Origin: Nemertoderma westbladi
Lineage: Eukaryota > Animalia > Xenacoelomorpha
DNA: 64,000 nt
Direction of reading: 5' to 3'
NCBI GenBank assembly: GCA_032718475.1
Contig: JAUCBJ010007407.1
Location: 1 to 64,000, forward strand
A program made the translations under genes and the position numbers. Of the stretch, positions 925 to 49,614 are shown piece by piece; the stretch's first letter is position 1; each line of letters opens with the position of its first letter. Under the pieces are notes generated by a model. The model made no database searches. It had not been told where the DNA came from and saw only the letters and a program-made list of their open reading frames with translations.

Positions 925-1102
925 TAGATACTAGGCTCTGTTCCTCGCCAGTAGTCGTTTGTGTATTGTATCTGTTTGTTTAGATATCCTGGACTGGGAT
1001 TTGTTGTCAGATACTGTACAAGCCCGTATACATTACTAGAGTCTCATAGTAAGATACATCATTACTAGGATCTGGTAAGCGGTATACTACTGGACCCTTA
1101 CA
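925..1102 (+). repeat. Remnant (3' end) of the 5' LTR of element A
   Basis: Direct repeat of 18229-18406, ending ...ggacccttaCA. Confidence 0.93.
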
Positions 1103-1112
1103 GTAGGAAGTA
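1103..1112 (+). promoter_or_regulatory. Primer-binding-site position of element A, non-canonical (GTAGGAAGTA, no TGG)
   Basis: Directly follows the LTR-terminal CA. It is the exact reverse complement of LTR sequence tacttcctac (17131-17140). Element B also starts GTAGGAA at this position. Confidence 0.6.
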
Positions 1113-2116
1113 TTTTATATAAATTAGTATATAGTACTTCTATCATAGTGTATAGTATTCCTACCTTACAGTAGGAAGTATATTATACAAATTCTGAGAT
1201 TAGCGTATAGTATAGTTTAGAATTGTTAGCTATTGAAAGTAGGAGATATTTAAAATCTAAGGTTAGTAAATTTAGTAATTTAGAACGTCCCCTGCTTCAG
1301 TAGGCTTTTAGGGTAGCTAGTACTTTCGTATTTAATATTTGACTAGCTAACAGTTAGTTTGTAGCACTTTGTTTTACGCCGTGTGTGTGCGGTGTTACTT
1401 TTCGGTACTTGAAAAGGTACATAGGGTTTAAAGACCAATTTGTATCGGTACCTAGGAAGATTTTTCGTAAGCGTAGAAGTAAAACTCTCACCTTCGACCT
1501 TTTCAGGACTCAAGGACTCATTTCTGGACCGCTTCGAGGATTAGACCGCTTTTCGCAAAGTTTGGGAGACAATAAATTCGTCCGCGCCGCCGAAAAACGG
1601 AAAGACCCACGTCCGGTTTGTATTTGGGAATTTGTACGACTGGAAGATCAAAGGAACGTAAGTTTTACGACTCGCGTCGTTCAAACTTAAGAAAGCACAG
1701 TAGTACTCAAAATTTGTGGGTTTCACTGTCTATTAGTAGTGTTGTTGGTACTTATTTTCCTGTTAGACGTTGCTGTTTGGCCTATTGTTTATACTTGTTG
1801 ATCTATATTTTGTTAACGTATACCGTTATCTCATTTATTCGTACAAATTTAGCCGGTAGGCTAGATTACTACTTATTTTATTATATACCTTGTTAGTTTA
1901 TTTGTACCGGTTAGGGTATATATATGATATATATATATATCAAGGTAAGTTTGACATTTGTACATTTTGACATTTTGACATTTCGACATTCTGACTTGTT
2001 GATTTATTTGTACCGGTTAGGGTATATATGTACTATATATACCAAGGTAAGTTTGACACTTCAACATTCAGACACTTTGACATTTTATTACCCTTAATTG
2101 ACGTATATAATAAGAC

Positions 2117-4495
2117 ATGAGTGACACACCCCATTCGACGAGATACCCACCTACCGACTATGACTCGTGCGACCCGGACAGATCGACAGTAGACGAACCG
2201 AGAAGGAGAACCCGAGATTCCACCGATGTCACACCGCTTGCGTCGCCGGTACCCCGAACGGAAATACCGGAAGCCGCAACGCGTGGCGACGGCAGAATCG
2301 AAGATTTCCTTACCGTCCCGCAGACTAGATCGCGGGAACCGGACATGGTAAGTTCGACTGGAAGCCAGGAGAACGTTATTAGAAGTATAGGAGGACACAT
2401 GGCCCAGATTACTCGGAACCTCGGAGAAGGTTTTCGCGTTTTACGCGAGTTAACCGCCCCGATGTCGAGATACGAGTTCTACACCTTACAGGTAAGGATA
2501 GAAGGTAGGGTACATGCCTCCGTAGATAAACTTAAAGGTTTGCACGAACTTGCAGAGTTGCGTGGCGACAACTTTACTCAGGTAAAGATAGTAGATAAAT
2601 TGGTAAGTGCGAGAGAAAGCCTTATCCAGTTTAAGTCGGTGATAAGATTGGCTCAACAGGAGCAGTTCGACCAACTGCTAGGTGAGTCAGTTTCGGACGC
2701 GTTGTTACAACCCGAAGAGGAAGAAGAACTCTACTGCCTGGACGGAAGGTTGGAAACGCTGACCAATTTTCTTCGTAGATGCGGCGTACCGATCGACGAA
2801 CCGGAAGTCGAACCGCGAGGGACAACGAAAGTTCTCACTACGGAAGGCTCGCGAGCCTACCAACATCCACCACTGGATAGATCGTTCGTTAGCGTACGGA
2901 GCGACGTTGGCAACGTTGGCGACATTAGTAGAACAGCGTCTGGAATTACTCGACAACAACAGGAGGTTGCACGCCGACAACAAGTCGCCGAGGAAGAAGC
3001 GCGACACCAGATGGCACAGATCGCCATCGAAGGAGAGAAACAACATAGAGAGGACGAGGCAAGAATTGCACAACTCAAGGCGCAAGCCGAATTCGAAGCT
3101 TCGGAGATGCGCAGATTGGAGGAGGACTTAGTGCGAGAAGCGGCAGCCGACGAGTTAGCACGACAGGCGGCAGCTGACGTGTTAGCACGACAGGCGGCAG
3201 CTGACGAGTTAGCACGGAAGAAAGCAGCATCCGACGCTCGTGCCAAGTTGGAGGCGCGGCAAATAAACGCTCGATTAGCTATACAGGAAGCTGAGTTAGC
3301 GGCACAACAACAGGATGCAGATCGAAGCGAAAGGGAGATGCAACTACAGTTCGAATTGAATCGTAGATCGCGCGAGACAGCGAACGCGCAAGCGGACCTC
3401 GAACTCGACGCGAGAGATAGATCTATAAGATCGCGAACTGGACACAACTTGTCTGCCCTGGATCGTATGGAAGCTCGATATTGCGGAATACAGAAGCGGA
3501 TCGAGGAAGGAAGCGTGGGAGCGATAGATCGAGGAGAGGAGTTCGTCGAGGATTACTGTAAACGTTTTCCCCAAGTTATTCCTATGCTCAAACCCACGAC
3601 TCCGATAAAACCGGTCTTTGTTACGAAACCTAAGGAAATAACGCCTGTGCGTTCGACGCAAGGCAACAGGTTTGTTGTGACGGAAATACCGCAACCTAGG
3701 GCGACTTCATCGCCAATCTTAGCAGGTAACGTAACTAGTCCACCTACAGTAAGTCGTAGTCTACTTGTAGGAAGAGAGGAACCTGCGTTTATGACCATTA
3801 AACAGGTGAGTAAACCATTACAAGTTAAACCTGTGACGTGCTGTGCAAATCCAGTTATTTACAGACCGACTACGAAACCCGACTATTTCACTCGACCGTT
3901 GACACAATGTTCGACGCAACCTACGACTTCGTGGAAGGCTTGCGAGCCTACCGAACTACGGAGGAGGATGGATGTGGGTAGTACCCACGGGATCGGACAA
4001 CGTATAGCGAGACCTACGACTTCGTGGAAGGCTTGCGAGCCTACCGAACAACGGAGAGCCGTAGATTCCGGACCACAACGGACGAAATCGAGAATAATAC
4101 GCCGGACACGAACCCGCCAACCACCTTATCCGGACGACAGCGACTCATCTAGTGACTCGGAGTCGACGGAACGGGAAATATTCCGTACTGGAGCGGCGGA
4201 AGATTATAAACGAGAGGAACGATCGACGAACCCCTATATCGACAATCCTCCACGAGAAACACCCCAACAGAAACCCACGTTGAAACCAGCGGAAACGATC
4301 AGCGCTAAACAGTTCACCGAGATGACGGACAGAATAGCTCAACTCGAAGAACGACTCGAAGCGCAACCGTCGGATCGATCACGAACCAGCGTGGAGTTGG
4401 AACAACCTAGACAACATCGACCACCGAGGAGAGAACAGGAGACTAGACGGACTCCGACACATCGAGAAGATGATCCCGTTAATAATTCCTACTGA
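2117..4495 (+). CDS. gag: Element A polyprotein part 1: Gag N-terminal extension (Ala/Glu/Gln coiled coil); ends at an in-frame TGA
   Basis: 792-aa ORF homologous to B ORF 42026-43738. In the same frame as 4553-7024 with only the TGA at 4493-4495 between them; B has a sense codon there. Confidence 0.85.
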   Translation: MSDTPHSTRYPPTDYDSCDPDRSTVDEPRRRTRDSTDVTPLASPVPRTEIPEAATRGDGRIEDFLTVPQTRSREPDMVSSTGSQENVIRSIGGHMAQITRNLGEGFRVLRELTAPMSRYEFYTLQVRIEGRVHASVDKLKGLHELAELRGDNFTQVKIVDKLVSARESLIQFKSVIRLAQQEQFDQLLGESVSDALLQPEEEEELYCLDGRLETLTNFLRRCGVPIDEPEVEPRGTTKVLTTEGSRAYQHPPLDRSFVSVRSDVGNVGDISRTASGITRQQQEVARRQQVAEEEARHQMAQIAIEGEKQHREDEARIAQLKAQAEFEASEMRRLEEDLVREAAADELARQAAADVLARQAAADELARKKAASDARAKLEARQINARLAIQEAELAAQQQDADRSEREMQLQFELNRRSRETANAQADLELDARDRSIRSRTGHNLSALDRMEARYCGIQKRIEEGSVGAIDRGEEFVEDYCKRFPQVIPMLKPTTPIKPVFVTKPKEITPVRSTQGNRFVVTEIPQPRATSSPILAGNVTSPPTVSRSLLVGREEPAFMTIKQVSKPLQVKPVTCCANPVIYRPTTKPDYFTRPLTQCSTQPTTSWKACEPTELRRRMDVGSTHGIGQRIARPTTSWKACEPTEQRRAVDSGPQRTKSRIIRRTRTRQPPYPDDSDSSSDSESTEREIFRTGAAEDYKREERSTNPYIDNPPRETPQQKPTLKPAETISAKQFTEMTDRIAQLEERLEAQPSDRSRTSVELEQPRQHRPPRREQETRRTPTHREDDPVNNSY

Positions 4496-4552
4496 CGAAC
4501 AACGCGCGGAAGGGAGCGACTGGACGACGCCGCCGAACAGGGACGCGGACAG

Positions 4553-7024
4553 TTGGACTTAGTTAGCGAGATTGCGAAATTCGCAGCTAGACACGGATTA
4601 CCGGCACAGCAACCGCCGAAGTTCTCTGGCAACGCGAAACACTGGCGCACACTGGTAGACTACGTAGAGTCCCAGATCGCTAAGTGTGCTTTCACCTCAA
4701 CGGAGAAGTTTAATTACTTGCTCCAAGTCCTGTCTGGTGAGCCGAAACGATTAGCGGAAACCTTTATCGGTGTTCCCGATGCCTTTGAGTTGGCGTACGA
4801 CCGTTTGTATTCAATTTACGGCGGTAATGTCGCCATGGCTAAATCCATCATTGAAGACCTCTGCAGAGGAGGCAACATTTCGAGACCGATCGACCTTTTA
4901 CGACTCGCGGACGAAATAAAGAACGCTATAGGGACTTTACGGTCCATTGGACAACTCGAGTACGCTAACGCACCGACGGTTCTCATTCGAATAATCGGTC
5001 GACTTCATCATCGACTACGACGAGAATGGCGACGCATCGAGTACCAGCGTGAAGAGGCCGGAGGGTTATTAAAACTCACCGATGTCTATCAACTTATTTC
5101 ACGGGAGGCCGTGATCGAGACTCGATCGAACTATACCAATCACCATATCGCGGCGGAAGGGATAGCTGTTTCTGCGCCGACTCGGACAAAACCATTTCCG
5201 ACGAACGTGAAAGCCGTTACTTACGCCACCCCTACTGAGACTTCTAAAGTTCTGACGCCTATCGGCACCACGCAGCCACGACAACAGTTGCCGGCGGACT
5301 TTGTGGGATGCTCATACTGCGAGCGGAACGGCAGAAACCATAGCGGACATAAACTACGTGGATGTCGCGCTTTTAAAGAGTTAGGGATCGAGGAGAGGAG
5401 ACTCCAAATCCGATCTCTAGATTCCTGTTGGAGATGTATGAAGCCAGGACACGTCCGGAAGGATTGCCCGAGCGACGATACATGTTCTCTGTGTGGACGT
5501 AACCATGACGCGTTGCTTCACACAACCAGTCATACTCCGACCAGACGCTTTCGACGAGAGCATCCAGATAAAGCGGCTAGATGCGACGCGCTTTATAAGG
5601 AGCGTGCGCCGCGCGAGATCCGTACCTTTTATACCGACTGTATGGATCAGTCAGGATCATCGGACGAGGATGAGGAGGAAGACGACACCTTTTACGTGCA
5701 TGCAGGTGAGGAACAGCCATCGATAACGCTCCTCACACAGAACCAATTGAAAGGGTTTAGCGTGATTCCTATAAAGATTACCGGAACCCGAGGGAGCAAG
5801 CGTATATACGCCATCTTAGACTCTGCGTCATCGCATAGTTATGTCGACGAACAAGTAGCCGACGTAGTTACGGACATGAGTCAAGGTAAGACTGCTCAGT
5901 ATACTGTAAGCAGCATGCATGGTAAGAGAGCGATCCCTGTGACAAGAGTAAAACTAACCTTAGACACTCTTCTTTCCAAAGCGGAACACAGCAAGGAGGA
6001 GCGCTCATTACTTCCGGTAATAAATTTGACCTTTGCAGCTACGAAGGACTTTAGTAACTTGCTCGGCCCTGTGCCAGAGCAATCACCGGAAGATCGTAAG
6101 TATTTCCGACACCTTGGAATACCGGAATGTCCTGTCAATTATCGTTCCATTGCGATGTTAATTGGGACAGACCAGTTTAACTTACATCAGGTATGGGAGA
6201 CACGCCCATCTGTTATTACAGCGGGCAACCCCTACGCATGTAGAACTCCCATAGGTTGGTATACTAGAGCACCAATACGTTCACTAGAGGTAAGTGACCA
6301 GGAGGACGACGTTTTGAGTACGTGTAGTTTATTGACTAACACGATAGATAATTCTCCTTCACACTCCTGTGGTCCAATTGTACGGACGGCACTACGACAG
6401 ACTTGCGTCACTAACGCAGACGCCACCGATACTGACGTAACCGATCTGGACACGACCATACGGACCTCTGACTTACAACTACTTGCAGTAGACCAGGTTG
6501 TATTGACTACTGAAGACCTAAGGGTTGTTGCCGTGGATGACTCGATGAACGAGGATTTTGGAAGGCTTGCGAGCCTACCGAAAAATCCGAAGGTCATTGA
6601 CCCCACCCACCAGGCTTCGACACCGGTCGTTGATTTTGGAAGGCTTGCGAGCCTACCGATAGATCAAAAGGTTGTCAAACCGCCGCACGACAATTCGACG
6701 CCGACTAGTGACACCGGAAGGCTTGCGAGCCTACCAGACACATTGACACTAGCCACCGCAGCGGACGAAGACGTGGATGAGGACCATGGCGCAGTGCAAG
6801 CAGCGCTTGACCGACTGCTGACTGAACGGACCATACAATGGTTGGAACAGGACTCAGCAGAACCCGGTAGTTACGAGACCGCTATGTCAGAACAGGAAAA
6901 ATGGTCATTAAATATTATGAGAGATACCATTCGCCAGACCGCGAATGGCCACTATGAGGTTGGTATGTTGTGGCGCAATGGACAGGACAACCTAAGTTCG
7001 TTAACAATTACCCGCTTGCTTTGA
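4553..7024 (+). CDS. gag-pro: Element A polyprotein part 2: BEL Gag core (DUF1759-like), Cys/His knuckles, aspartic protease
   Basis: PPKFSGN..HW...KFNYLLQVLSGEP core; CWRCMKPGHVRKDC and CSLCGRNH knuckles; protease ILDSASSHSY. Frameshifted to part 3 by a 5-bp duplication ggaca|ggaca at 6980-6989. Confidence 0.9.
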   Translation: MDLVSEIAKFAARHGLPAQQPPKFSGNAKHWRTLVDYVESQIAKCAFTSTEKFNYLLQVLSGEPKRLAETFIGVPDAFELAYDRLYSIYGGNVAMAKSIIEDLCRGGNISRPIDLLRLADEIKNAIGTLRSIGQLEYANAPTVLIRIIGRLHHRLRREWRRIEYQREEAGGLLKLTDVYQLISREAVIETRSNYTNHHIAAEGIAVSAPTRTKPFPTNVKAVTYATPTETSKVLTPIGTTQPRQQLPADFVGCSYCERNGRNHSGHKLRGCRAFKELGIEERRLQIRSLDSCWRCMKPGHVRKDCPSDDTCSLCGRNHDALLHTTSHTPTRRFRREHPDKAARCDALYKERAPREIRTFYTDCMDQSGSSDEDEEEDDTFYVHAGEEQPSITLLTQNQLKGFSVIPIKITGTRGSKRIYAILDSASSHSYVDEQVADVVTDMSQGKTAQYTVSSMHGKRAIPVTRVKLTLDTLLSKAEHSKEERSLLPVINLTFAATKDFSNLLGPVPEQSPEDRKYFRHLGIPECPVNYRSIAMLIGTDQFNLHQVWETRPSVITAGNPYACRTPIGWYTRAPIRSLEVSDQEDDVLSTCSLLTNTIDNSPSHSCGPIVRTALRQTCVTNADATDTDVTDLDTTIRTSDLQLLAVDQVVLTTEDLRVVAVDDSMNEDFGRLASLPKNPKVIDPTHQASTPVVDFGRLASLPIDQKVVKPPHDNSTPTSDTGRLASLPDTLTLATAADEDVDEDHGAVQAALDRLLTERTIQWLEQDSAEPGSYETAMSEQEKWSLNIMRDTIRQTANGHYEVGMLWRNGQDNLSSLTITRLL

Positions 7025-10000
7025 GGCGACTCAAATCAATAAGGCAGCGATTGTTGCGAGACGAGATGGCCCATATGCAATACAATGCACAACTTCAGAC
7101 GTATCTCCAAAAGGGATACGCCATTAGGATGTTAAATCCCGAGGTAACCTCAGACCAGACATATTACCTGCCACATCATTTTGTTCGACACCCGGACAAA
7201 CCTGGCAAGGTGCGTGTAGTCAACGACTGCGCTGCGCTTTACCAAGGGATGTCTATGAATAGCGAACTGATGGACGGGCCGAATATGAATAATTACCTCA
7301 TGGGAGTCCTAATGCGTTTTAGACAACGCAAAGTGGCTTTCACCTGTGACGTAGAGGCCATGTTTCACCAGGTTAAGGCTTTGGAGCGGGACAGGGACAG
7401 TTTGAGGTTTCTTTGGTATCCGGACGGAAACTTACAACTTCCGCCAGAAACTTACCAAATGCAGGTAAGAGTATTCGGAGCCAGGGACAGCCCCAACTGC
7501 ACCATGTACGCCTTAAAGCAGACAGCATTGGACAGACGAGACCAATTTGACCCAGAAGTAGTTCGGACCGTGGAACGAGACTTCTACGTGGATGACGGCC
7601 TCAAGAGTTGTGACACCTTGGAGCGCGCTACAACCGTAGCACACCAACTCCAGGATTGTCTCGCTGAGGGCGGATTTCACCTGACGAAGTTCGCTTCCAA
7701 CGAACCCGAACTGGTGAACTCATTTGACCCGATGGATCGCAGTGGAGGTGACTTGGACTTAGACTTAGAACCTCTGCCGACGACCAAAGTATTAGGACTT
7801 AGTTGGGACCCTAACACCGACAATTTTAGGGTACGTGTAAGGTCCAACGATCGGACTAGACCTCTCACTAAGAGAACTTGCTTATCGACCATGAGTCGAT
7901 TGTATGACCCATTGTGTTTCATTAGTCCAGTGATCCTACATGCCAGGATCATACTCCGCAGCATTTGGCAAGCCGGACTGGAATGGGACGATCCCATCCC
8001 AGAAAAGTTAGCTGAGCGATGGAGGGACTGGGAAGCCCAACTGACGTTCCTACAAGACTATACCATACCAAGGGTATACTTTCCTTTGCAAACCACCTTT
8101 CCTGCTGATTTAGAGCTTCACAGCTTTAGTGACGCTAGCAAGGATGGATTGGGGGTTACTTTATACCTTAGACGACAAGTGACATCGGACAGCTACGATG
8201 TATCTCTCGTTACTTCAAGGGCTAGAACAATGCCATTGAAGTATATGACTGTACCTCGTGGGGAGCTGCAAGCCGGGACGATATCCACCGATATTGTCAG
8301 TCTAGTTCAACGCGAGCTGGAGGCTAACTTGAAGGTCACATATTGGACGGATGCGACGTTGGTACTTTGGTACATAAACAACGAAACATTCGAGTTCAAG
8401 ACTTTCGTAGCCAACAGACGGGCTGAAATATTAGACCGGTCGCTCAAACAAGATTGGCGTCACTGTCCAGGGAAGCTGAACCCAGCTGACATCGCGTCAC
8501 GGGGGATGCAACCACTTGACTTTTGTAAACCGGACAATAAATCCTTTTGGTTTAGAGGACCCGATTTCCTACAGCGACCATCAGACGAATGGCCACCGTT
8601 ATTCGACGCGACAACCAACACCATACCAGAGGGTGCCGAGATAAAACTCGACAAGGTTGTCAAGTCTAAAGCGAAAGCCAACGCCAAGGTCAAGAGGAAA
8701 AAAGGACGGACGAAATCTGATGACCTGGATGCCAGACCTGACATTACGCCAGACGTCTCGCCAGACACTCGACCAGACGCTTGTACAAATCCTTCGCCGG
8801 ATGTTCCGCGGGAGATTTCACCAGACGTTTCGCCGGATTGTTCACCAGATTACTCGCCAGACTATTCACCAGAAGAGACACCAGATTGTTCTCCGGATTG
8901 TTCGCCAGATTGTTTGATGGAACTCTCGACAGAATGTCTACCGGACGTCTCACCAGACTGTTCACCAGACATCTCGACAGACTGTCCACCAGACTGTCCA
9001 CCAGACTTTAGACCAGACTTTCTGACAGAAGTTACGCTAGACAGACTTTGGGACCGACGACAGGACATTTCGCCGGATGTTCCGCGCTATGTCTCACCAG
9101 ACGTCTCACCAGACTGTTCACCAGACGCTTCACCAGACTGTCTACTAGACACTCCATTAGAAGACCCATTGGAGCGGACTTTTAGAGACGTACCGAATTT
9201 GACTTCTTTGGACGACAGAGGTGTGGCCACAGGGATTACACTCCGCTCGAAGAAGGTACTTGACTTACCTACAGGTAAACGTGTGACTAAGGTTAGGAAG
9301 CTTACAGGCTCACAGGAACACACTGACACTGTAGAGTTGAAACCATTACTGCCAGTCGACACATTAGGTGCGGACGGTAAAGGTAAGACCGTAGAGATTG
9401 ACGTACTTGGGGATTCAGACAAACCTACGGGAAGGCCCGTGGGCCTACCAAGTCCAGACAAGTATCCACACTACGACTACACCTTACCTGATGACGTCAC
9501 CAACACTTACGTTGACAGGATAGTGAACCTAACTAGATCATGGACTGACGCGTGCCGCAAGTTAGCATGGCTCAAACGATTGAGACAATATGCCAGAGGC
9601 AAACGCGACTTTCCTAGAAGACTTACCTTAAAGGAAATTGGCCACTGTGAAGTTGATATCATTCGACATTATCAATTGCGATATTTCGCACGAGAGTTCA
9701 CAGCGATCAAACAAGGTAAACAGATTAAGTCTTCACCGATTTTGAGTTGGAGTCCGATTATTTACCGGGGCTTACTTTGTCACAAGTCCAGACTACAAAA
9801 CATCGACTTTGCACTTGACTTTAGGTATCCTATCATCATACCGCAACACCATGAGTTACAGCGCGCTATGATACTGGACGCACATGTACAACTCAAACAC
9901 GTAGGTAGACACCACTGTCTATCACACTTACGCTCGAGGTTTGTACTGATTAGACCTAGTAAGGCACTGAGTTCGGTAACACGGAACTGTATTATTTGTA

Positions 10001-11016
10001 AGAAGGTGCACGCGAGGATAGGACACCAAGAAATGAGTGAACTACCACTAGCTAGATTACAGGCGTTTAGACCCCCTTTCACTGAGACAGGGATAGACTG
10101 TTTTGGACCCATAATCGCGAAACGCGGAAGGGTACAGGTAAAACGTTGGGGATTGATCTTCACTTGCATGGCCAGCAGAGCTGTCCATATAGAGCGAGTG
10201 ACAGACTTGACCACCAATGCCTTTATCCTAGCCTTACTGCGATTTATCGCTAGACGTGGATTGGTCAAATCCATATACTGCGACCAAGGGACAAACTTTG
10301 TGGGTTCACGGAACGAGATAACCAGAGCTTTGAGAAAATTGGACCAAAACCAGATTTCCGAGGAACTACGTCCTCACCGTATTGTTTGGGTTTTCAATAC
10401 TCCAGACAGTCCGTGGAGAGGCGGCGTTTGGGAAAGGCTGATTGGCTCAATAAAGACAGCTATGGCTAAAGTCGTACCGACGCAACACACCTTGACAGAC
10501 GACCAACTAACGACGTTACTAATAGAAATCGAAGCAATCTTAAATACCAGACCGATCGCTTTGATCCCAGACAATAACGACGTACAGTTTGCCTTGACAC
10601 CAGCGCACCTGCTTATGCAGGCGCCGACGACATTGTTGCCCATTTCGGTACCCGTTGATAGTGACGGATACGGCAACAAAGCTTGGAAAATCACTCAATT
10701 ACTTGCAAATAAATTCTGGGAAATATGGCAGAAATATTATTTGCCCTCTATTTCGACCAGAACTTCCTGGTATCTAAATACCCGATGTTTAAGACGTGGT
10801 GACCATGTTTTATTGGCTGAAGCTAATCTGAAAAGACGGTTTTGGCTGACTGGAGTCATTTTGACCACGCACCCTACATCTGGTGTAGTGAGGACAGTTA
10901 CTGTACGGACTATCGACGGACGTACCGTAGACAGACCTGTACAACGTCTCGTACTCCTTGAGGAAACTAGAAACGAGACGGGAGACTACAAATCTCCACC
11001 CAATATTAGTAAATAG
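6970..11016 (+). CDS. pol: Element A polyprotein part 3: reverse transcriptase, RNase H (Peptidase_A17-type region), integrase
   Basis: YYLPHH..KVRVVND, DVEAMFHQ, FYVDDGL (RT); HSFSDAS, YWTDA, NPADIASRG (RNase H); HHCC zinc finger, GIDCFGP, CDQGTNF, GGVWERL (DDE integrase); BEL C-terminal domain RPVQRLVLL. Confidence 0.95.
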   Translation: MAQWTGQPKFVNNYPLALRRLKSIRQRLLRDEMAHMQYNAQLQTYLQKGYAIRMLNPEVTSDQTYYLPHHFVRHPDKPGKVRVVNDCAALYQGMSMNSELMDGPNMNNYLMGVLMRFRQRKVAFTCDVEAMFHQVKALERDRDSLRFLWYPDGNLQLPPETYQMQVRVFGARDSPNCTMYALKQTALDRRDQFDPEVVRTVERDFYVDDGLKSCDTLERATTVAHQLQDCLAEGGFHLTKFASNEPELVNSFDPMDRSGGDLDLDLEPLPTTKVLGLSWDPNTDNFRVRVRSNDRTRPLTKRTCLSTMSRLYDPLCFISPVILHARIILRSIWQAGLEWDDPIPEKLAERWRDWEAQLTFLQDYTIPRVYFPLQTTFPADLELHSFSDASKDGLGVTLYLRRQVTSDSYDVSLVTSRARTMPLKYMTVPRGELQAGTISTDIVSLVQRELEANLKVTYWTDATLVLWYINNETFEFKTFVANRRAEILDRSLKQDWRHCPGKLNPADIASRGMQPLDFCKPDNKSFWFRGPDFLQRPSDEWPPLFDATTNTIPEGAEIKLDKVVKSKAKANAKVKRKKGRTKSDDLDARPDITPDVSPDTRPDACTNPSPDVPREISPDVSPDCSPDYSPDYSPEETPDCSPDCSPDCLMELSTECLPDVSPDCSPDISTDCPPDCPPDFRPDFLTEVTLDRLWDRRQDISPDVPRYVSPDVSPDCSPDASPDCLLDTPLEDPLERTFRDVPNLTSLDDRGVATGITLRSKKVLDLPTGKRVTKVRKLTGSQEHTDTVELKPLLPVDTLGADGKGKTVEIDVLGDSDKPTGRPVGLPSPDKYPHYDYTLPDDVTNTYVDRIVNLTRSWTDACRKLAWLKRLRQYARGKRDFPRRLTLKEIGHCEVDIIRHYQLRYFAREFTAIKQGKQIKSSPILSWSPIIYRGLLCHKSRLQNIDFALDFRYPIIIPQHHELQRAMILDAHVQLKHVGRHHCLSHLRSRFVLIRPSKALSSVTRNCIICKKVHARIGHQEMSELPLARLQAFRPPFTETGIDCFGPIIAKRGRVQVKRWGLIFTCMASRAVHIERVTDLTTNAFILALLRFIARRGLVKSIYCDQGTNFVGSRNEITRALRKLDQNQISEELRPHRIVWVFNTPDSPWRGGVWERLIGSIKTAMAKVVPTQHTLTDDQLTTLLIEIEAILNTRPIALIPDNNDVQFALTPAHLLMQAPTTLLPISVPVDSDGYGNKAWKITQLLANKFWEIWQKYYLPSISTRTSWYLNTRCLRRGDHVLLAEANLKRRFWLTGVILTTHPTSGVVRTVTVRTIDGRTVDRPVQRLVLLEETRNETGDYKSPPNISK
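8730..9150 (+). repeat. Coding 12-bp minisatellite (ccagac-based; S-P-D-C/V repeats) between RNase H and integrase
   Basis: Repeated tcaccagac/tcgccagat units giving SPDVSPDCSPDYSPD...; B has an analogous PDGQPDML array at 37430-37690. Confidence 0.85.
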
Positions 11017-11511
11017 ATGTGGGACCTTTGTTGGCCGCCACATAGACCTACTGTATTTTAGTTATTTGTATTTGTAGTACTGTACGTGCATTTGTAATCC
11101 TCTTCACTGTAGATAGAGACAGCGGTGGAATTCCATTGTCTTTATACGTGAACATGGAGGGTAGTACCCTTATGTATCACATAGGAGCGGGATTGTGTGT
11201 ACAGTAGGAATGGAATTCCACTTGGAACCCACAAGTGAGACAATTTTCAAAAATTATTAGACAAATCCATTTAGTTGGATTTTAATTTAAGAAAAACGAT
11301 TCTCCAGTGAAAAGCAAATTCTAGAATACAGCTAGAAAAAATTAAAATTGGGGAGGACAAGAGCGGATGGAAGGCTTGCGAGCCTACCGATAAATTTTTT
11401 TTGGAAAAAGAAAATCGGTCTTGTTCTACGTAGTCGTGTCTACTATTATTTAGACCAATTAATTCTCGACTGCATTATTTTCTTGGGAAACGTAGTTTGG
11501 GAAATTAAAAG

Positions 11512-11708
11512 GTGAGTATTTTAGACTCGCGGCTAGTTTACCCGGAATTCGTTTTTTATCGGCACATTTTGGATTAGGAGCCAGTGCGAAATCACGCGAA
11601 CCCGAAGTCATTAGGCAAAATGGGTTGGGGTTTAGAGCAGAGTTGAGCCAAAAGCCGACAAACTCTAAAGTCACCTCACATCTAACCTCTATTTTGTGCT
11701 TCATCTAG
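11512..11708 (+). other. Putative intron in the leader of the accessory gene
   Basis: Donor AG|GTGAGT at 11512, branch CTAAC at 11682, pyrimidine tract and CTAG ending 11708, 40 nt before the ATG at 11749. All three signals are conserved in B (35031 to 34827, minus strand). Confidence 0.55.
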
Positions 11709-11748
11709 TAGAAACGTAACGATATGTAACCGCATATATTCGTATACG

Positions 11749-12663
11749 ATGGCGGAGAAGATGTATAAAGAGTTACGTCAAGGGTTTACGCAAGAACAGG
11801 AGCACCAGGCGCCATTCAATCGTTATGGAGCTAAAAACTTTAGTGTGTTTGGAGTGGAGAGTATGGCTAGGAGTACGGCCAAGCTCGCTAAATCAAAGGC
11901 GGACCCGAATGTTACGCGACAGCGGTTGGACGCATACAATAAAAGAACGGAGGAATTACGCGCGGAATACAATGCGTTATATCCCTACGACGCGTTATGC
12001 GACGCTAGCGACATTTGCGAGGATCCAGACACCGAAATACGCCAATTGTATCATACGCTGCAATATTTAACGGTAAACGAACCTTTACCTGCAGCTAGAG
12101 ACGAATTTGAAGGAATGCATCTTTATAGACGCGCTCGAGGAGCGGATCCAGAGACCAAGGACGCGTTTTCCGTATACAAACTGTTTTATAAATGTGGAGC
12201 GTGTATGCGCGAGCAAGACAACGCGATTCCTATGCGGTTGAACTCGGAGAACCCCGAGCCGATATTAGCGCGATGTTCACACCACCAAAGTCTACGTTAC
12301 CAAGAAGGCGGATACCCTTTGACAAATCCGTATCATTCATTTAAGATGAGTGGACCGAACGCGGGTGAGATCGTTATTTACGAACCAAAATTAGTCGAAC
12401 CAGACGTCTACAGCATGGTAGTGGACGAGTCTAATAAGTCGACACAAGAGAAATGGGAAGCTTTGAGCCTCTACAGGGCGTACAAGGCGTACGAGAAAGG
12501 CGAGATCGAGGAGTTCGGCGGAAGGCTCGCGAGCCTACCATTCTATTGGATATCCCACGATCAAACCGAACCCAAGGAGATGACACCCGAGCTCTTCGAT
12601 AGTATCACCTTTGCTCAGCGTTTGTCGCAGAGACTACAGATACCTCATGTCGAGATGACGTGA
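11749..12663 (+). CDS. Element A accessory gene, N-terminal part (unknown function)
   Basis: 304-aa ATG ORF whose N-terminus is homologous to B 34600-34795 (APFNRYGAKNFSVFG vs APFERFGAKDYTIFG). The frame stays open after the TGA at 12661-12663 into 12829-15504. Confidence 0.8.
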   Translation: MAEKMYKELRQGFTQEQEHQAPFNRYGAKNFSVFGVESMARSTAKLAKSKADPNVTRQRLDAYNKRTEELRAEYNALYPYDALCDASDICEDPDTEIRQLYHTLQYLTVNEPLPAARDEFEGMHLYRRARGADPETKDAFSVYKLFYKCGACMREQDNAIPMRLNSENPEPILARCSHHQSLRYQEGGYPLTNPYHSFKMSGPNAGEIVIYEPKLVEPDVYSMVVDESNKSTQEKWEALSLYRAYKAYEKGEIEEFGGRLASLPFYWISHDQTEPKEMTPELFDSITFAQRLSQRLQIPHVEMT

Positions 12664-12828
12664 GAACCTCAGCCCCATTCTACTGGAGCGATAGTACCGG
12701 TTGCGAGACCAACTAGTTTTCCTATTAGTATACCGACCCGGAAGGAGACAACTTACGAGATCCCTATAGTTGAACACCCGGAGATCATCTCGAACCTGGA
12801 TTTCCTCCCATCGGTCACCTTCGGTGAT

Positions 12829-15504
12829 GTGTTAGAATCAACCGAGTTGCGTAAAGTAATAGTTCAAAAAATCGTACGCAACGTGCCTCCACATATCACG
12901 GACTTTAAGGAAGTGGATCGCGCGGGGACGGATATCGCACCTTGTATCTTGAGAGGATATCTGACGAAAATGATTCGATTATGGATCGGAGTTGGGACGT
13001 TTGAGACCGACACCGATATCGCGACCAATTGGACTGGTAAACCTATTAGTTTCGATGACGAAAAGTCGATCGGGAGAATTTGGAACCCTACCGACGATTT
13101 ACTCGACGATTGGGACGTGACTAGCCGATCTCTGAAAGAGAATGGATATATGTTCTACGATAATGAAGGAGGAAGCCATCAGCAAAGCCTCACTTCAAAG
13201 ACTATACAGATTAGAGCACCAGATGGCGTGTTACATGTCTTCAGCCGACAGAGGAGTGATAGGAAGATGCCTATGCCGGAAGGAACGACGCAAAGACACG
13301 CGATGATAAAACGGATAGTTAAATCCATGGACCTGGCTTGTAGCATAGAAGCTAGGATGTTGCCAAAGGCCGTGCGAGACGTTGTGTTGGATAAGAGCAT
13401 CGTCAAGATCGGATCCGGTGTACGGGATGACCTCATTAGCGACTTTGCAGGGATGCCCACGGAAGAGGACCGATTGCCTACGCCATACGTGGATACTAGA
13501 CCATTGTTGCTTTGGGCTATTGAGCAAGGATACTTTAGAGAGTATAACACGCTAAAAACTGGGACGGGTTATATCTCATATCTGATGTTCAGTTGGGATT
13601 ACAAGGAGAGTAAGAGGAACAAATACACGGACGTATACGGAGAGGGAGATACCCCCGGCGTAAACGAGTTCGAGTCACAGTTAAAGTGGCGAGGTTGCGT
13701 GTATTGGGCGATTACTTCACCTCCGCGGATAATCTTGCAATACTATTTAGCGATAGAATCTTCGGTTAACGTTTGTTTCATCGCGGACGTAGTATCCAGA
13801 ACCTTAAAGCGACACCCGTTATGTCTTGGCGAAGGACATACCTTTTACGAAGGAGGAAGGATGCATACTGATGTATTCCGACGATTTCTCCAACCCTTTT
13901 ATAACACTGATGCGCACTGCGAAGTTTTCACGCGAGCGGGACTTAGCGTTTTCAGGGACGTCTATCTCACTCACGCGGGAAGTCTAGTCGACAGACCGTC
14001 GATGTTAACGTTAGTACCCTATGACGGGGAACGCCACGCGGAATTCGAACGCCCGGAAGGATCCTGGAAGGCTCGCGAGCCTACCGCCCATCATGACGAT
14101 GTGGATCCGACCGAGTTGGCGCAAATAGACGAACCGTTACGGCAACTTATAGAAATAGAGGAGAACCTTCCGAGGAAGACGCGAACTGAGATACGCGAGT
14201 TAGAGAAAAGCGATGCCATGGTTTGTGTACAACCTACGGAGACGAACATACCGACTGACCCGGATGATGAGAATTATCACGTGGATGGTAGCGCTCACCC
14301 CATCGGAGATCTCATCTATGAGCGAGTTTGGTATCCTGCCAACACTATTTGTGGCAGATGTGGAGCAACTGGCCATCACGCAAAGAAGTGCGGAGCGAAG
14401 CACATATCTCTACCGGATTTAGTATGCAACTGGTGCAGGGATCAACGTTCGCACACTTTCTACACTTGCTGGCGTTTCGTGGCGCAGTGTACTTATTGTA
14501 ATATTAAGGGCCATAGGGCATCTGAATGTCAACTTAGAGACGTCCCCTATGAGCACATGTCAGTTAAAATCGTTCGACAATTATTCGACCATTGGGAGGA
14601 TCTAGCAGACGAGCATGTATCGACGCACCGACGCCGCTTCCTTATGAGAGCACATTTGGGATTTTGGGCCGTAAACCCTCTCATAATGTCAAAGGAAGGA
14701 TATGTATCGGCTATGCCTCAGTACGATGAATTGTTGGAGGTATTGGATATATTGCCGTTGGACAGTGGATTCAAAGTTGTGCGGGACTATTTCTTACAAG
14801 TGCACCCCGACAACAAGAATACTTGGAACTTTCAAACTGTGGTGAACAAGATTACCGCCGGAGAATTCGATAAACTGCGAGTTGAACAGCGGAATCGAGG
14901 AGCCTGGCATTCGATAGCTTGGGCATACCGGAGCGCATTTTATCACAAACGCGTAACCTCGTGCATTCTGGACGAGACCGACGTTTTGCGTGAGACTGGC
15001 TTCAAGGCCACGCCGTTAGCGGAGAAGACGCGTCACCCACAGGATGATCAGCAATTTCGTATACTCAAAGCCCAGAAGGCCGGACAAGAGATTAAGAAGA
15101 TAGTGAATGTCGCCGAGAGGACGACATCAAAGTCGCAAATCCGGATGACTCGGGGCACGGTTTCCCTTGCTAGAGAACCACGCGGAGGGACAGGATACGC
15201 TTTGACTGAACCCATTAGGATTCAAACGACGTCAGAGAGCGAGGTGTCAACGGACGGAACAGTCCTACCTTTTCGACTTCCTCCTAGCGTTGTAGAAACT
15301 CGATCCGATGTTAAGCCGACAGTTGGAATCGGACGAGGATTTAGAGGATTAAGCGCACGACGGATGTGCGAAACTCCCGTCGTCCCCTTTCCTAGCGTTT
15401 TGGAACCACCGACGACTCGACGCCGAAGTCCGAGCCAAGTTCGACCTCGACCACCCCCCAATCGCACTAGAGGACGTGGACGAGCCCGCTCAGCGAAGGA
15501 ATAG
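12829..15504 (+). CDS. Element A accessory gene, main part: DEDDy-type 3'-5' exonuclease-like domain, three zinc knuckles, Arg-rich tail
   Basis: MFYDNEG (ExoI), TIQIRAPDGVLHVF, LPKAVRDVVLDKSIVKIGSGVRDD (ExoII), YVDTRPLL, QYYLAIES (ExoIII-like); knuckles CGRCGATGHHAKKC, CNWCRDQRSHTFYTC, CTYCNIKGHRASEC; tail RGRGRARSAK. Domain call by motif recognition only. Confidence 0.75.
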   Translation: MLESTELRKVIVQKIVRNVPPHITDFKEVDRAGTDIAPCILRGYLTKMIRLWIGVGTFETDTDIATNWTGKPISFDDEKSIGRIWNPTDDLLDDWDVTSRSLKENGYMFYDNEGGSHQQSLTSKTIQIRAPDGVLHVFSRQRSDRKMPMPEGTTQRHAMIKRIVKSMDLACSIEARMLPKAVRDVVLDKSIVKIGSGVRDDLISDFAGMPTEEDRLPTPYVDTRPLLLWAIEQGYFREYNTLKTGTGYISYLMFSWDYKESKRNKYTDVYGEGDTPGVNEFESQLKWRGCVYWAITSPPRIILQYYLAIESSVNVCFIADVVSRTLKRHPLCLGEGHTFYEGGRMHTDVFRRFLQPFYNTDAHCEVFTRAGLSVFRDVYLTHAGSLVDRPSMLTLVPYDGERHAEFERPEGSWKAREPTAHHDDVDPTELAQIDEPLRQLIEIEENLPRKTRTEIRELEKSDAMVCVQPTETNIPTDPDDENYHVDGSAHPIGDLIYERVWYPANTICGRCGATGHHAKKCGAKHISLPDLVCNWCRDQRSHTFYTCWRFVAQCTYCNIKGHRASECQLRDVPYEHMSVKIVRQLFDHWEDLADEHVSTHRRRFLMRAHLGFWAVNPLIMSKEGYVSAMPQYDELLEVLDILPLDSGFKVVRDYFLQVHPDNKNTWNFQTVVNKITAGEFDKLRVEQRNRGAWHSIAWAYRSAFYHKRVTSCILDETDVLRETGFKATPLAEKTRHPQDDQQFRILKAQKAGQEIKKIVNVAERTTSKSQIRMTRGTVSLAREPRGGTGYALTEPIRIQTTSESEVSTDGTVLPFRLPPSVVETRSDVKPTVGIGRGFRGLSARRMCETPVVPFPSVLEPPTTRRRSPSQVRPRPPPNRTRGRGRARSAKE

Positions 15505-16142
15505 AAAGCGAGTGGAAGGAAGGCTTGCGAGCCTACCGATTTGAATATTATATTTGGATATTATATTTGGATATTATATTTGGATATTATATTTGGATAT
15601 TTATATTGGACATTATGTTTGAATGTTGGGTTTGGAGGAGCGAGATATGGAAAGGAAGGCTTGCGAGCCTACCGTTAGCAATTGGTGCTCAGGAGAAGAT
15701 ATCCAGACCAGCAGGACGAACTTTTCAGATCGTCAGGAGGACTCTTTAAGACTTATTTGAAAGTTATTAGCGCATTGTGTTTATATTATATTTGGACTGA
15801 TTTAATTTGGTGAAGGTTTATTATGTATATTTACAATATATAAAGATTTATCGAAAGAGTTTGATTTATTTGTTCGATTTGTTTTGATTTATTTGTTCTG
15901 ATTTGTTTAATTTGCTTACCTTGATAACCGAAAGCCTTTTTTTGTATTTTAGGCACTAAAGTTAATTCGTAAATTTGTATTTGTATGTACGATCGATTGT
16001 ATTTACGCCGTATCTGCAATATTAAGTATGCAATAATTAGATAGTGATTATATTTTATATTTTAGGCCCTACCAGTAAATTTAGAAATAGTTTGTAAATA
16101 TTTTTTATTTCGATTGGTGAAAACAGTCTTACTTACTGTTTT

Positions 16143-16152
16143 CATGGAGCGG
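16143..16152 (+). promoter_or_regulatory. Polypurine-tract position (catggagcgg) before the 3' LTR of A
   Basis: The same GGAGCGG directly precedes the 3' LTR in B (32312-32318, minus), C (25513-25519) and D (60708-60714, minus). Confidence 0.75.
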
Positions 16153-16294
16153 TGATGAATTATTTCACTATAAGGTAGCATTTGTAGTTTAACTTTAACG
16201 TAAAAACTTTCGAAAATCCGACGTATTTTGATTAAGTTACAGTAATGTAATATGCCTATTCATATTTGTACACATAAAACCCTTAGGTACTCTC

Positions 16295-16377
16295 GTGGCG
16301 TAGTGGTCAGATGGTTAAGGCGTTGGTTACATTACATAGGTTACGAGTTCGAATCCCAGTCGGGAAATTTGTATTTT
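16295..16377 (+). ncRNA. tRNA-derived Pol III cassette (A box, B box, T-run) inside LTR A
   Basis: gtggcgtagtggtcagatggttaaggcg...gagttcgaatcc followed by tttt. Stems pair poorly, so this is not a functional tRNA. Confidence 0.6.
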
Positions 16378-16440
16378 GGGACCATTTATTTTCGTTTGGT
16401 GCTAATTGGTAGGCCAATGAGAAGCGTACAACGTAGCGAA

Positions 16441-16656
16441 TAATGAGCCAGGCCAATCATAGGGCATAAATTATCTTATTGCTCAAATGTGAGGCAGTGG
16501 AAAATTCTGTTAGGATTCCATGTCCCAGATTAGTGTAAGGGCCGGACTGCGTTGAACGATGAGCTGGGCCAATCATAGGGCACGAAGCACTTTATTGCTC
16601 AATTGTGAAGCTGTGGAAAATTCTGTTTAGTTTCCATGTGCGATTTTAGTATAAAA
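16441..16656 (+). promoter_or_regulatory. LTR A promoter: duplicated ~117-bp CCAAT-box units and TATA box (16650-16656)
   Basis: Two copies of ggccaatcatagggca...tggaaaattctgtt, then TATAAAAGG. B has TATAAAAGG at the equivalent place (31880-31888, minus). Confidence 0.65.
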
Positions 16657-18406
16657 GGCCGGTTTGCCTTCGGTTATTATCTCTCTTACCACACCCTTAT
16701 AACCCTTATGTTAGTTTATTCGGTTTCTTGTTGAAACTTCGTTTGATAATTCTTTGTAAAACTGTAAATATACTGCAATTCCTGAACATGTTTTCCTTTG
16801 GTCCAACTTTGGGACAGCCAAACATCAGGGAGATGGCAGCCTAGACCGTTAGGCCGTAAGCAACGCAGGGAAGGGGTGTCCACAACACGCTAGCGCCCAC
16901 ATTGGATCGACCGCGCACCCCCTTTGCCCCTTCGAAATGCTCCACTTGCTATGCAGCGCCCGCTTTGTGAGAAGGTAAGACTTTGTTCGACGCCCTTGCC
17001 CGCCGTAAGACCTATAGATCAGGGTAAGCGTGACACCGTACTGGACGCCGCAAATTTAGGATCAAATAATTATATCCAGACAACCCCCCCCCCCCCTTTG
17101 TCAAGTCCTACGAATCCCTGGGTTAACCTGTACTTCCTACAGGTGCGAACTATTGCCATTCGTCAGTACGCGAGTACATATTAGGTACGGACAGCATATG
17201 TTCCATAATTTAGTGATTCATAGCACTGACTGTTTGGTACCGGTTCGCTTTGTAGAACGTACATTAGTACCCCCCCCCCCCCCCCCCCTGTCTGGAGTTA
17301 GCTATTTGATCAGGCAAGGAGCATTTCTGCTACCGGCACACTGCTTGGCCTAGGGAGGTTTATTAATATCCTACCGCGCCTTGCCACGTACTGATAGGTA
17401 TTGCTGCTAACTACCGCAGCAACAAAGTTCTAGAATTAAATTAGTATACCAGATCAGCTAACGTACGGTAGCGATTAACCCCTATTCTTATCTTACAACC
17501 AGAATCTGGTATTAGTGCCGATCACGGGTGTAGTTACTAACACTGTGGTTGCCCATTGGGTTGTGGATAGGAAGGAGAGAGCTTTGACGTCATTCGTGAG
17601 TATAAAGTTCTACAAAACGCGACTAGTTTATTTTAGTAGCTAGCGCACGGTATCATTTTAGTCAGAAAATCACTAAAACCTAGTAAAAGGAATTACACGA
17701 AATTGTTTTATTTGTAACACACCCACACACACACGCCCTAAAACATATTGCCCTTAAAGTTCTACTAGCTATAGCGCACTATACATTACTTTAGGTGGAA
17801 ATTGTCTGTATTTGTAAAATTAGGATCTGATTTAGTTGCGGCAAGATAGAGTATTTCACTTTCGTTATTAAACTGTTGATTTCTGTCCAGCAGTTATTGT
17901 TACATTTAGGCTTGACCCTTTAGACTGATTTCGTACAGGGGGATCAGTTATCGTTACATTTAGGCACGACCCCTTTTCGACTGATTTAGGACAGTCAGTG
18001 TTGTTACGCTAGGTCTGTTAACCCACTAGCTCGTATATAAACCATATAAATCACACCGCGGCAAGTTACTGTATTTAGGACTGTCAGTGATAGTTAGGAT
18101 TCGCTGCGCGGGGATTGTTTTCCCGTGAGTTTGGTCTGTTACTGTAACTGTACATCTGCCTCACCGGTTAGAGGACAGGTATCCTTCTGTCTAGTACGTA
18201 GGCATTAGACCCGCTCACGTACATAGAATAGATACTAGGCTCTGTTCCTCGCCAGTAGTCGTTTGTGTATTGTATCTGTTTGTTTAGATATCCTGGACTG
18301 GGATTTGTTGTCAGATACTGTACAAGCCCGTATACATTACTAGAGTCTCATAGTAAGATACATCGTTACTAGGATCTGGTAAGTGGTATACTACTGGACC
18401 CTTACA

Positions 18407-21400: not shown

Positions 21401-22452
21401 GAGTAAGCTTCTATGAACCACCCTTTACTAATACCGGTGTAGATTTATTTGGCCCTATTGAAGTATATCGTGCTAGGACTATAGTCAAGAGATGGTGTGT
21501 CATCTTTGTTTGTATGACTTGTAGATCATCCATCTTGTCTATCCATCTCGATATGGTGAACGATTTATCTACCAACAGTTTCCTATTAAGCTTACGACGA
21601 CAGATCGCTCGCTTTGGAACCAGTAACACGATGAGATCTGATAAGGGAACAAACTTCATTGGTGCCAACAATGAAATCAAAGCTTACGTCAAAGATTGGA
21701 ACCAAAGACAGGTGGACGATAAGCTACGAGTAACAGCGTCTAGCTGGACCTTCAACGCCGCCGACGCCCCTTGGTGGGGAGGAAGTTGGGAGAGATTAAT
21801 AAGAAGTGTGAAGACCGCATTTCACTTTATAGTGCCGTGCCGCGCGTATCTCACCGACGAACTTTTGTGGACGTTAATGGAGGAAATCGCCTCCTATCTC
21901 AACGAGAGACCGCTTATGCCAGTCTCATCGAGTCCCGATTCCCTGGAAGCGCTAACACCCGCGCACTTCCTACTGAAGAAACCTGTAGCCATGCTCCCAC
22001 AATCGGAAATCACAGACGGAGACGAATACTGCCGGCAAACTTGGCAACTCATGCAGTTGTTATCCCGTCGTTTTGCTGACCATTTCGAAAAACATTATCT
22101 GCCCACGCTACAACTTCGAACTAAGTGGTTTGCGCAGCAAGAAAACGTCAGCGCTGGAGACATGGTCCTTATTGTGGATGCAGATCTTCCACGTAAGCGG
22201 TGGCAGACAGGTCGTATCATCGAGACTCACATCTCGGATGACGGTTTGGTGCGATCGGTAGAACTTGTCGTCATGCGACGTAACTTCAAGAAACCGGGAA
22301 TTGTCTTCGAGACACAGCAGCTCAATCGCCCAGTTGGTCGCTTATGTTTACTGGAAAGAGACAGAGAACTCTCCGGAAACTATGGAAGACAAGATACTCT
22401 TCCCACGACCACCTCCCTAATCCAACAAACATCTAGGGACTCCCCAGCTTAG
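18407..22452 (+). pseudogene. pol: Element C pol (RT-RNase H-IN); in-frame TAG at 18871-18873; main ORF 19006-22452
   Basis: YYLTHH, DIEGMF, IYMDDNL, HVFGDAS, NPADIASRG, GVDLFGP, SDKGTNF, GGSWERL. ORFs 18445-18873 and 19006-22452 share a frame. Confidence 0.92.
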
Positions 22453-49612: not shown

Positions 49613-49614
49613 CG

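Follow-up and report, generated by a model that had tools for sequence, protein, structure and literature searches.

In the literature consulted, priming of reverse transcription from an element's own RNA has been shown only for the Tf1/sushi group of Ty3/Gypsy retrotransposons. In the accounts available for Tf1 and Tf2 of Schizosaccharomyces pombe, and for the precedent of Tj1 in S. japonicus, there is no tRNA site, about 11 bases following the long terminal repeat (LTR) pair with the element's own LTR RNA, and a cut by RNase H is the proposed source of the 3′-OH (PMC7175516, PMC4600332); in Tf1 the first 11 bases pair with the site, and the cut falls between bases 11 and 12 (PMC7175516). For the BEL/Pao elements, the International Committee on Taxonomy of Viruses (ICTV) gives host-tRNA priming for the whole family Belpaoviridae (genus Semotivirus), with an 18-nt site for tRNA-Arg or tRNA-Gly, LTRs of 0.2–1.2 kb and genomes of 4.2–10 kb, and calls replication of the family poorly understood (PMC8742986). 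Here we describe two elements of BEL/Pao lineage, A and B, in the first 64,000 nt of contig JAUCBJ010007407.1 of Nemertoderma westbladi (assembly GCA_032718475.1; this whole stretch is referred to as the window), in which the primer-binding site (PBS) has its complement in the element's own LTR. We think it somewhat better than an even bet that they prime themselves in cis, from their own 5′ leader RNA, with a Tf1-like cut.

Earlier descriptions of BEL/Pao offer little to compare with this. In the parts of the main text available for three surveys, neither PBS nor tRNA is mentioned (PMC554778, PMC3118150, PMC6238403); as far as the accessible text goes, a further study does not model BEL/Pao LTRs (PMC3601003) and another gives only a general priming scheme (PMC8220671). 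No description of self-priming or of a splice-made primer in BEL/Pao was found in the literature searched, mainly open-access main texts. The two elements, their LTRs and the sequences that pair are as follows.

925–18406, + strand: element A, BEL/Pao lineage, inserted within a third element, C.
46882–30424, − strand: element B, BEL/Pao lineage, complete, 16,459 nt.
925–1102, + strand: remnant of the A 5′ LTR, its last 178 nt, identical to 18229–18406 at 176 of 178 positions.
16153–18406, + strand: A 3′ LTR, 2254 nt, TG..CA.
16143–16152, + strand: core of the A polypurine tract, identical to that of B.
45000–46882, − strand: B 5′ LTR, 1883 nt, with TA..TA termini.
30424–32311, − strand: B 3′ LTR, 1888 nt, TA..TA, identical to the 5′ LTR at 1870 of 1883 positions, with one 5-nt gap.
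32312–32321, − strand: core of the B polypurine tract.
1103–1112, + strand: A primer-binding site GTAGGAAGTA, no TGG, adjoining the LTR end (..CTTACA, 1102).
44989–44999, − strand: B primer-binding site GTAGGAATATG, no TGG, adjoining the LTR end (..CGCATA, 45000).
17131–17140, + strand: A anti-PBS, complementary at 10 of 10 positions, predicted 3′ end of the primer RNA.
46026–46036 (5′ LTR) and 31460–31450 (3′ LTR), − strand: B anti-PBS, complementary at 11 of 11 positions, predicted 3′ end of the primer RNA.

The first-pass annotation had located the sites and their partners, and all of its coordinates for them are correct; TGG is indeed lacking after either LTR. It had also claimed that each LTR holds the exact complement of its own site, which holds for both, for A in the 3′ LTR only, since the 5′ LTR is reduced to its last 178 nt. 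Each site finds its sole perfect complement in the window in its own LTR. When the LTR is shuffled by dinucleotides, a match as good arises in 12 of 3000 cases for A and in 0 of 3000 for B, and internal k-mers with a complement in the LTR number 24 of 15039 and 14 of 12660, respectively. The two versions differ, as had been noticed, and each fits its own LTR: the sites have only 7 bases in common (GTAGGAA), and the A site against the B LTR, or the B site against the A LTR, gives 7 nt only. Also borne out is the comparable distance past the GTGACAC block, about 95 nt in A and 70 nt in B. After a short loop, 7 further pairs extend the duplex of B. The pairing in A and B is real and far beyond chance. 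The anti-PBS itself was said to lie in a small hairpin in each element; support for this is moderate in A (z −1.6, with 14 of 200 shuffles as stable) and lacking in B (z +0.97, 167 of 200).

Two features near the sites had gone unseen by that annotation, namely a second copy of the A site and local hairpins at both sites. The A leader (1113–1185, + strand) contains two local hairpins, and the second copy of the site (1171–1180) follows the same six LTR-end letters. The hairpins at or just 3′ of the primer sites are more stable than shuffles in both elements (z −3.2 (−3.17) in A and −2.8 in B, 1 of 200 shuffles each). The B family is high-copy in three DNA runs of one organism, and among the rows listed its contigs carry one substitution, and also one rare deletion, in the 39 nt around the anti-PBS, as against 19 substitutions in the next 105 nt. 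No RNA run is among those listed as carrying the sequence; X5, the one run that may be RNA, has gaps over the anti-PBS and the primer site, from which nothing follows.

By their predicted proteins A and B are of the BEL/Pao lineage. A domain search gives the Gag/Pol order DUF1759, Peptidase_A17, Integrase_H2C2 and DUF5641 in the elements of the window, with DUF1759, the Pao peptidase A17 and DUF5641 in both A and B, the integrase zinc domain also in A, and a YVDD motif in the A reverse transcriptase (RT). The RT regions of A and B are 74% identical, and the closest other proteins are 41–47% identical, those with a named source belonging to sea urchins, corals, molluscs and fish; PF05380 is carried by all of 120 relatives among the matches listed. 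The gag region of B as a query found a single distant protein, and the A pol query had no match among viral contigs. The coding regions are as follows.

2114–11013, + strand: A gag-pol region in three open stretches, with a stop at 4493–4495 and a frame change near 6958–7021.
35510–44176, − strand: B gag-pol region in three stretches of a single frame, separated by stops near 43790 and 42026.

Both are thus broken by stops, and A additionally by its frame change. B has two LTRs, a polypurine tract and a 5-bp target duplication, GTTAA, at 46887–46883 and 30423–30419, which fixes the TA..TA termini; A, with its cut 5′ LTR, exceeds 17 kb. Unusual termini, TA..TA at both LTRs of B instead of TG..CA, are also seen in the relatives L009 and L022 (TG..TA) and L103 (TA..AA). 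Like the ICTV Belpaoviridae, A and B have DUF1759, peptidase A17 and DUF5641, an integrase after the RT and RNase H, LTRs, a polypurine tract and a 5-bp duplication (PMC8742986). They depart from that description in lacking a tRNA site, in their LTRs of 1.9–2.25 kb and lengths of 16.5 kb (B) and >17 kb (A), in the TA..TA ends of B, and in an extra frame that is exonuclease-like rather than env-like, and are members of the BEL/Pao lineage that are not typical semotiviruses.

Aligning A and B with 20 relatives led to 80 metagenome and 23 genome-bin loci with 29–46% identity. Of these 103, 49 have a direct repeat more than 3.5 kb apart, and the 19 with both LTR 3′ ends visible were kept, the rule being that at an LTR-like end both repeat copies give way to flanks that differ. 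The exclusions were contig-end overlaps, cut LTRs, tandem arrays, L059 (which resembles L050), and L084, L092 and L098 (in which the repeat is not an LTR pair). The strict test admitted perfect Watson-Crick pairs, offsets of 0–4 from the LTR end, and canonical donors and acceptors only. The loci L081–L103 are BEL/Pao elements from 23 contigs assigned to genome bins of bacteria and archaea; most likely these contigs are DNA of animal hosts that was binned together with their symbionts.

A perfect self-match of 10–15 nt was found in 16 of the 19 relatives, so that with A and B the match is at least 10 nt, and 0–4 nt from the LTR end, in 18 of 21 elements. The sites of other elements served as one control, with 7 of 420 cross pairs matching, 6 of them between close kin whose sites are nearly identical; for the other, internal 30-mers were drawn at random, with 4 of 2100 matching. 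Near-duplicate pairs (L014/L096 and L081/L082) make the number of independent cases smaller. A blind test on 11 further loci lacking a visible 3′ end, with 20 shuffles each, gave matches of 11–13 nt, reached by 0 of 20 shuffles, in L028, L039, L036, L047 and L066; L028 and L039 are known families found again, being the same as L019 and L038. TGG is absent from the first six post-LTR bases of 18 of the 19 relatives, and 11 of 17 relatives share with A and B a site that begins with GT. By these comparisons the self-matching primer site is a clade-wide trait, mostly with a partner predicted to be splice-assembled, neither of which had been apparent from the first inspection of the window. Chance complementarity in two long LTRs is a reading to which we give practically no credence: LTRs of about 2 kb offer it some room, and A alone would come to 0.4%, but two elements match with different letters at matching positions, and the counts in the relatives against those for random draws already refute it.

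The next question is whether the pairing makes a primer or only a structure. Pairing with a structural role, in cyclisation or packaging, is known from Ty1. A combined reading would keep the pairing structural and let a host RNA prime, for example a half-tRNA pairing with GTAGGAA. Anticodon-loop primers lacking TGG are described for Copia, Ty5 and fungal Helenus in the part of the report available (PMC10886601), and the site of L088 has TGG at offset 1. However, where the site of those elements fits the anticodon loop of a host tRNA, according to the same partial account, the site of A and B fits its own LTR (PMC10886601). Moreover A and B share just 7 bases, the 20 different sites among the 21 elements would each need a different host RNA as well as a coincident self-match, and the match begins 0–4 nt from the LTR end; we rate a host primer as quite improbable. 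The suggestion of a primer derived from the element's own RNA, made from A and B, is strongly supported by the relatives, and the circularisation offered beside it is the weaker reading, because 12 of 19 relatives would have a partner only once the predicted splicing has taken place, and because the match, pinned 0–4 nt from the LTR end and opening with a conserved GT, is placed as a primer site would be.

In 12 of the 16 relatives with a match (L004, L014, L019, L022, L031, L038, L043, L081, L082, L089, L096 and L103) the match is found only across a canonical GT-AG joint with a pyrimidine-rich acceptor; in the other four (L009, L037, L051 and L064) it is contiguous, like those of A and B. 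The core shared by A and B is similar to the beginning of exon 2 in L031, L038, L088, L089 and L103. On a quick tree the contiguous forms are scattered among the spliced ones, which suggests repeated intron loss in the clade, and the contiguous matches in A, B and the four relatives are likely to be intron-loss forms; the LTR intron would be lost whenever the 3′ LTR copy is spliced. On the same tree A, B and C form a clade with support of 99, which then groups with L031 and L008 with support of 95.

The contiguous match in A and B, as read from the letters, needs no splice joint. One joint in A, with its donor at nt 612 of the LTR and its acceptor at nt 953, would give a second partner of 9+5 pairs; it was set aside as borderline, since 63 of 1500 random sites do as well, as do 79 of 1000 part-shuffles, and B has no such joint. 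A different role for splicing would make the A match the pyrimidine tract of an intron (with a branch-like TTAAC, and CAG at 17140–17142) whose lariat tail primes, or simply a by-product of a splice acceptor. The LTR of A does have just one strong pyrimidine-tract acceptor, and the match lies in it; donor-like sites are present at 16975, 17005 and 17024. Against this, GG and not AG follows the match of B, with no variant there among the B-family rows listed, and the match of the relatives is exonic, 3′ of the acceptor, so that we find this very hard to credit.

The LTRs of A and B share an order, read 5′ to 3′, of a segment with A-box and B-box, three CCAAT boxes, a TATA box, a U-rich stretch, a conserved block and the anti-PBS. 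The parts that bear on transcription and priming are the following.

16650–16684, + strand: predicted promoter of A, with a TATA box and, 27 nt after it, an initiator-like TTATCTCT, preceded by three CCAAT boxes.
46464 (TATA) and 46437 (TTATCTCT), − strand: predicted promoter of B, spaced as in A.
16971–17112, + strand (A), and 46178–46060, − strand (B): conserved block 5′ of the match, with a hairpin of conserved loop and donor-like GT motifs.
46362–46367, − strand: AATAAA in B, 341 nt 5′ of the anti-PBS, not in A.
45776–45771, − strand: second AATAAA in B, 250 nt 3′ of the anti-PBS.

We infer start sites at the CCAAT/TATA promoters of A and B, from which the distance to the anti-PBS would be 462 nt in A and 410 nt in B; from the anti-PBS to the LTR end there are 1266 and 1026 nt. 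A Tf1-type test of the 80–90 nt that follow the TATA box, with the start as predicted, gave a match of 4–5 nt only.

In the mechanism that we favour, RNA would start at this promoter, the 5′ leader of the element RNA would fold onto the primer site, and a cut just 3′ of ...UUCCUAC, probably by the element's own RNase H as in Tf1, would give the 3′-OH for minus-strand DNA, on a primer of about 460 nt in A and 410 nt in B. This predicts exact RNA ends, 17140 in A and 46026 in B. R would extend past the cut so that strong-stop DNA could jump. In most relatives the partner would be assembled by the predicted splicing of the LTR intron, A and B being intron-loss forms. Finally, in plus-strand synthesis the primer's 3′ end would be copied into the site, carrying changes in the partner along. 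Such copying of the primer 3′ end into the primer site is established for tRNA primers. We infer that it is because the primer 3′ end is copied back that site and partner covary without separate compensatory mutation, and covariation of this kind would favour priming over purely structural pairing.

Three things make priming in cis the best reading: where the poly(A) signals lie, how closely the match is held to the LTR end, and the precedent of Tf1. A poly(A) signal 3′ of the partner is needed because R must survive the cut for the strand jump, and 14 of 17 relatives have A[AT]TAAA 3′ of the match, while 0 of 17 have it 5′. This distribution also bears on a primer supplied in trans, by a separate LTR transcript (from solo LTRs too) or a second packaged genome, cut or trimmed to ...UUCCUAC, with the template left uncut and unspliced. 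Cis priming predicts signals 3′ of the match, and trans priming has no need of them. A trans primer would fit the AATAAA of B that lies 5′ of the match and would shorten R, and the retention of the intron in relatives, which requires an unspliced LTR copy in the template. The long conserved block before the match in A and B is also as expected of a dedicated RNA, but its fold is no stronger than that of shuffles. Trimming could be done by the predicted 3′–5′ exonuclease with zinc knuckles of A, a lead that rests on an Atlas score of 0.93; the exonuclease part is missing from the copy in B, and relatives have the match with no such frame seen, none having been sought. Overall we regard trans priming as unlikely, though less so than the other alternatives.

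The poly(A) signals would also place a copy of the match at each end of the RNA, and in L081 and L082 the signal begins 1 nt past the match. It could then be the 3′ LTR copy that pairs with the site, in a 5′–3′ cyclisation, with the tail cut off and the 3′ end of the genomic RNA acting as primer. In the spliced relatives this would demand a spliced 3′ copy and an unspliced 5′ copy and leave only exon 1 for the strand jump, part of it occupied by duplex; in L031 the TATA box is about 35 nt 5′ of the donor, so that the predicted exon has fewer than 10 bases. The Tf1 precedent, too, employs the 5′ end, and we think a primer from the 3′ copy a long shot.

Several points weigh against cis self-priming. 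The start site, the splice joints and the primer 3′ end are all predicted from sequence, and the predicted primer is some forty times the length of that of Tf1. The first AATAAA of B is 341 nt 5′ of the match and 65–70 nt past the predicted start; if it works, R ends 5′ of the match and priming is not purely cis. A has no AATAAA at all, its only signals being ATTAAA at +295 and +727. The A primer site can be masked by its local hairpin, and an A>G change at 46034, inside the B anti-PBS, makes up 11, 9 and 12% of summed depth in runs X1–X3 and is dominant in X4; no matching change at 44991 was visible in the 40 of 208 rows listed. Three of the 19 relatives (L050, L088 and L090) fail the strict test; L088 has an 11-nt joint once the acceptor rule is loosened, and on inspection L050 and L090 show one wobble or mismatch each, which were left unscored. 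In the blind test 6 of the 11 loci failed or were weak (L032, 10 nt with 4 of 20 shuffles; nothing in L003, L008, L012, L046 and L060). Extra pairing at the U5 end, which belongs to the Tf1 structure, does not appear to be general either, with a Fisher p of 0.30 over 19 elements (0.033 for B, 0.32 for A); as a trait of the clade it was set aside, p being 0.47 when two near-duplicates are left out.

As read here the trait of A and B works like Tf1 self-priming, outside the Tf1/sushi group. Their Pol is BEL/Pao and not Ty3/Gypsy, the partner is predicted to lie 400–450 nt into the RNA and not in its first 11 bases, it is split by an intron in most relatives, and extra U5 pairing does not appear to be general. 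We would call it an even matter whether a wide branch of animal BEL/Pao elements has exchanged tRNA priming for a primer from its own leader, mostly joined by the spliceosome from two exons of the LTR, splicing thereby acting as the licence for reverse transcription, with A and B as giant-LTR intron-loss members in which a capped primer of 400–460 nt is cut internally and, in A, possibly trimmed by the element's exonuclease. If true, a second superfamily would have evolved or retained self-priming, and two features would be new: the distance of the partner from the start of the RNA and, in most relatives, its assembly by splicing. The elements would be freed from the host tRNA supply and from tRNA-fragment defence, with copying tied to splicing, and tRNA-based annotation might for this reason find no primer site in many BEL/Pao elements.

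The element-encoded candidates for a tRNA-like primer were also considered. Cer7 of Caenorhabditis elegans, a BEL/Pao element, is said to encode its own tRNA-like primer, which would make it a forerunner of element-supplied priming in BEL/Pao. In A and B, by contrast, the tRNA-like segment in U3 has no pairing with the site, and the actual partner is not tRNA-like and has no CCA end. The segment is located as follows.

16287–16367, + strand (A), and about 46760–46675 and 32190–32100, − strand (B): tRNA-like segment with A-box and B-box in U3, a 68% match between A and B.

T runs lie 3′ of it in both LTR families, and it is perhaps a polymerase III promoter or an insulator. As a primer it was ruled out, its best complement to the site being 3–5 nt, as for the other tRNA-like pieces in the window; the one AT-rich, doubtful tRNA reported by ARAGORN (15802–15892) has no pairing with the primer site. 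Helenus terminal-repeat retrotransposons in miniature (TRIMs) similarly have LTRs with tRNA-like internal promoter boxes, and these show no pairing with the primer site, at least in the portion of the paper available; they are short, non-coding and use host tRNA primers, whereas A and B are coding, over 16 kb and self-complementary (PMC10886601). An Rfam scan of the window found no ribozyme, and one chance microRNA match outside A and B.

Both elements have an additional frame 3′ of pol.

11686–15501, + strand: extra 3′ frame of A in two stretches with one stop between them, with an exonuclease-like domain at about 13090–13830 and CCHC zinc knuckles.
33197–34915, − strand: pieces of the extra 3′ frame of B, with the zinc knuckles kept and the exonuclease part absent.

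The frame of A is not env-like. Its exonuclease-like part has an Atlas feature score of 0.93, with 23 of 30 matches in the PF01612 set, and motifs in 11686–15501 resemble those of DEDD 3′–5′ exonucleases; the zinc knuckles match zf-CCHC with an E value of 2.5e-5. Searches of Pfam, the PDB and homologues with the exonuclease-like part were blank, and a single-sequence structure model of the domain was unusable (pLDDT 34). The domain is likely a DEDD-type 3′–5′ exonuclease, which could trim the primer; it is not needed for the trait, because the copy in B lacks the domain. A search of representatives with the knuckle region of A gave 1 weak match, and a distant knuckle region is present in D, one of two further BEL/Pao copies described below.

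Other parts of the LTRs and leaders of A and B are also conserved. As a strong RNA structure the fold of the block 5′ of the match is not supported, being not more stable than shuffles (z 0.31 and −1.13), and of the B-family variants in its hairpin some are tolerated, some disruptive and none cleanly compensatory. In the 3′ half of the LTRs there are blocks conserved between A and B at 17590–17603, 18040–18068 and 18093–18112 (+ strand), with counterparts in B at 45510 and 45274 (− strand). One is a perfect donor-like TCATTCGTGAGTAT, and another, TATAAAT..CCGCGG, is identical at 28 of 29 positions between A and B and might act as a second promoter or as a signal for packaging or dimer formation. 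An acceptor-like TTTTCAG is kept 3′ of the primer site in both, at 1505 (+ strand) and 44760 (− strand), with donor-like sites upstream, and the long leaders may be spliced for translation.

The remainder of the window holds other elements. Two further BEL/Pao copies belong to a sister family.

18407–26684, + strand (C), and 64000–59491, − strand (D): BEL/Pao copies with LTRs of about 1.2 kb.

The LTRs of C and D carry the conserved-block motif AGGTTAGA common to A and B, and their primer sites fall outside the window. A DNA pattern drawn from the conserved block found 0 stretches among metagenome contigs. There is a BEL/Pao gag piece at 27038–28600 (− strand), a non-LTR reverse transcriptase at 47590–49605 (− strand), an integrase piece at 49588–50124 (+ strand), and two facing arrays of 15–17 nt repeats at 54000–55900. 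A long imperfect inverted repeat with short tandem units, resembling a miniature inverted-repeat transposable element, lies upstream of the cut 5′ LTR of A (300–760), and the Rfam microRNA match falls within this repeat, below threshold. The short motif GGAAGGCTTGCGAGCCTACCG recurs many times in A and B, in coding and non-coding sequence and also in tandem units of 78–84 nt, at about 3900–6735, 12600 and 15520–15670 (+ strand) and at 42195–42446.

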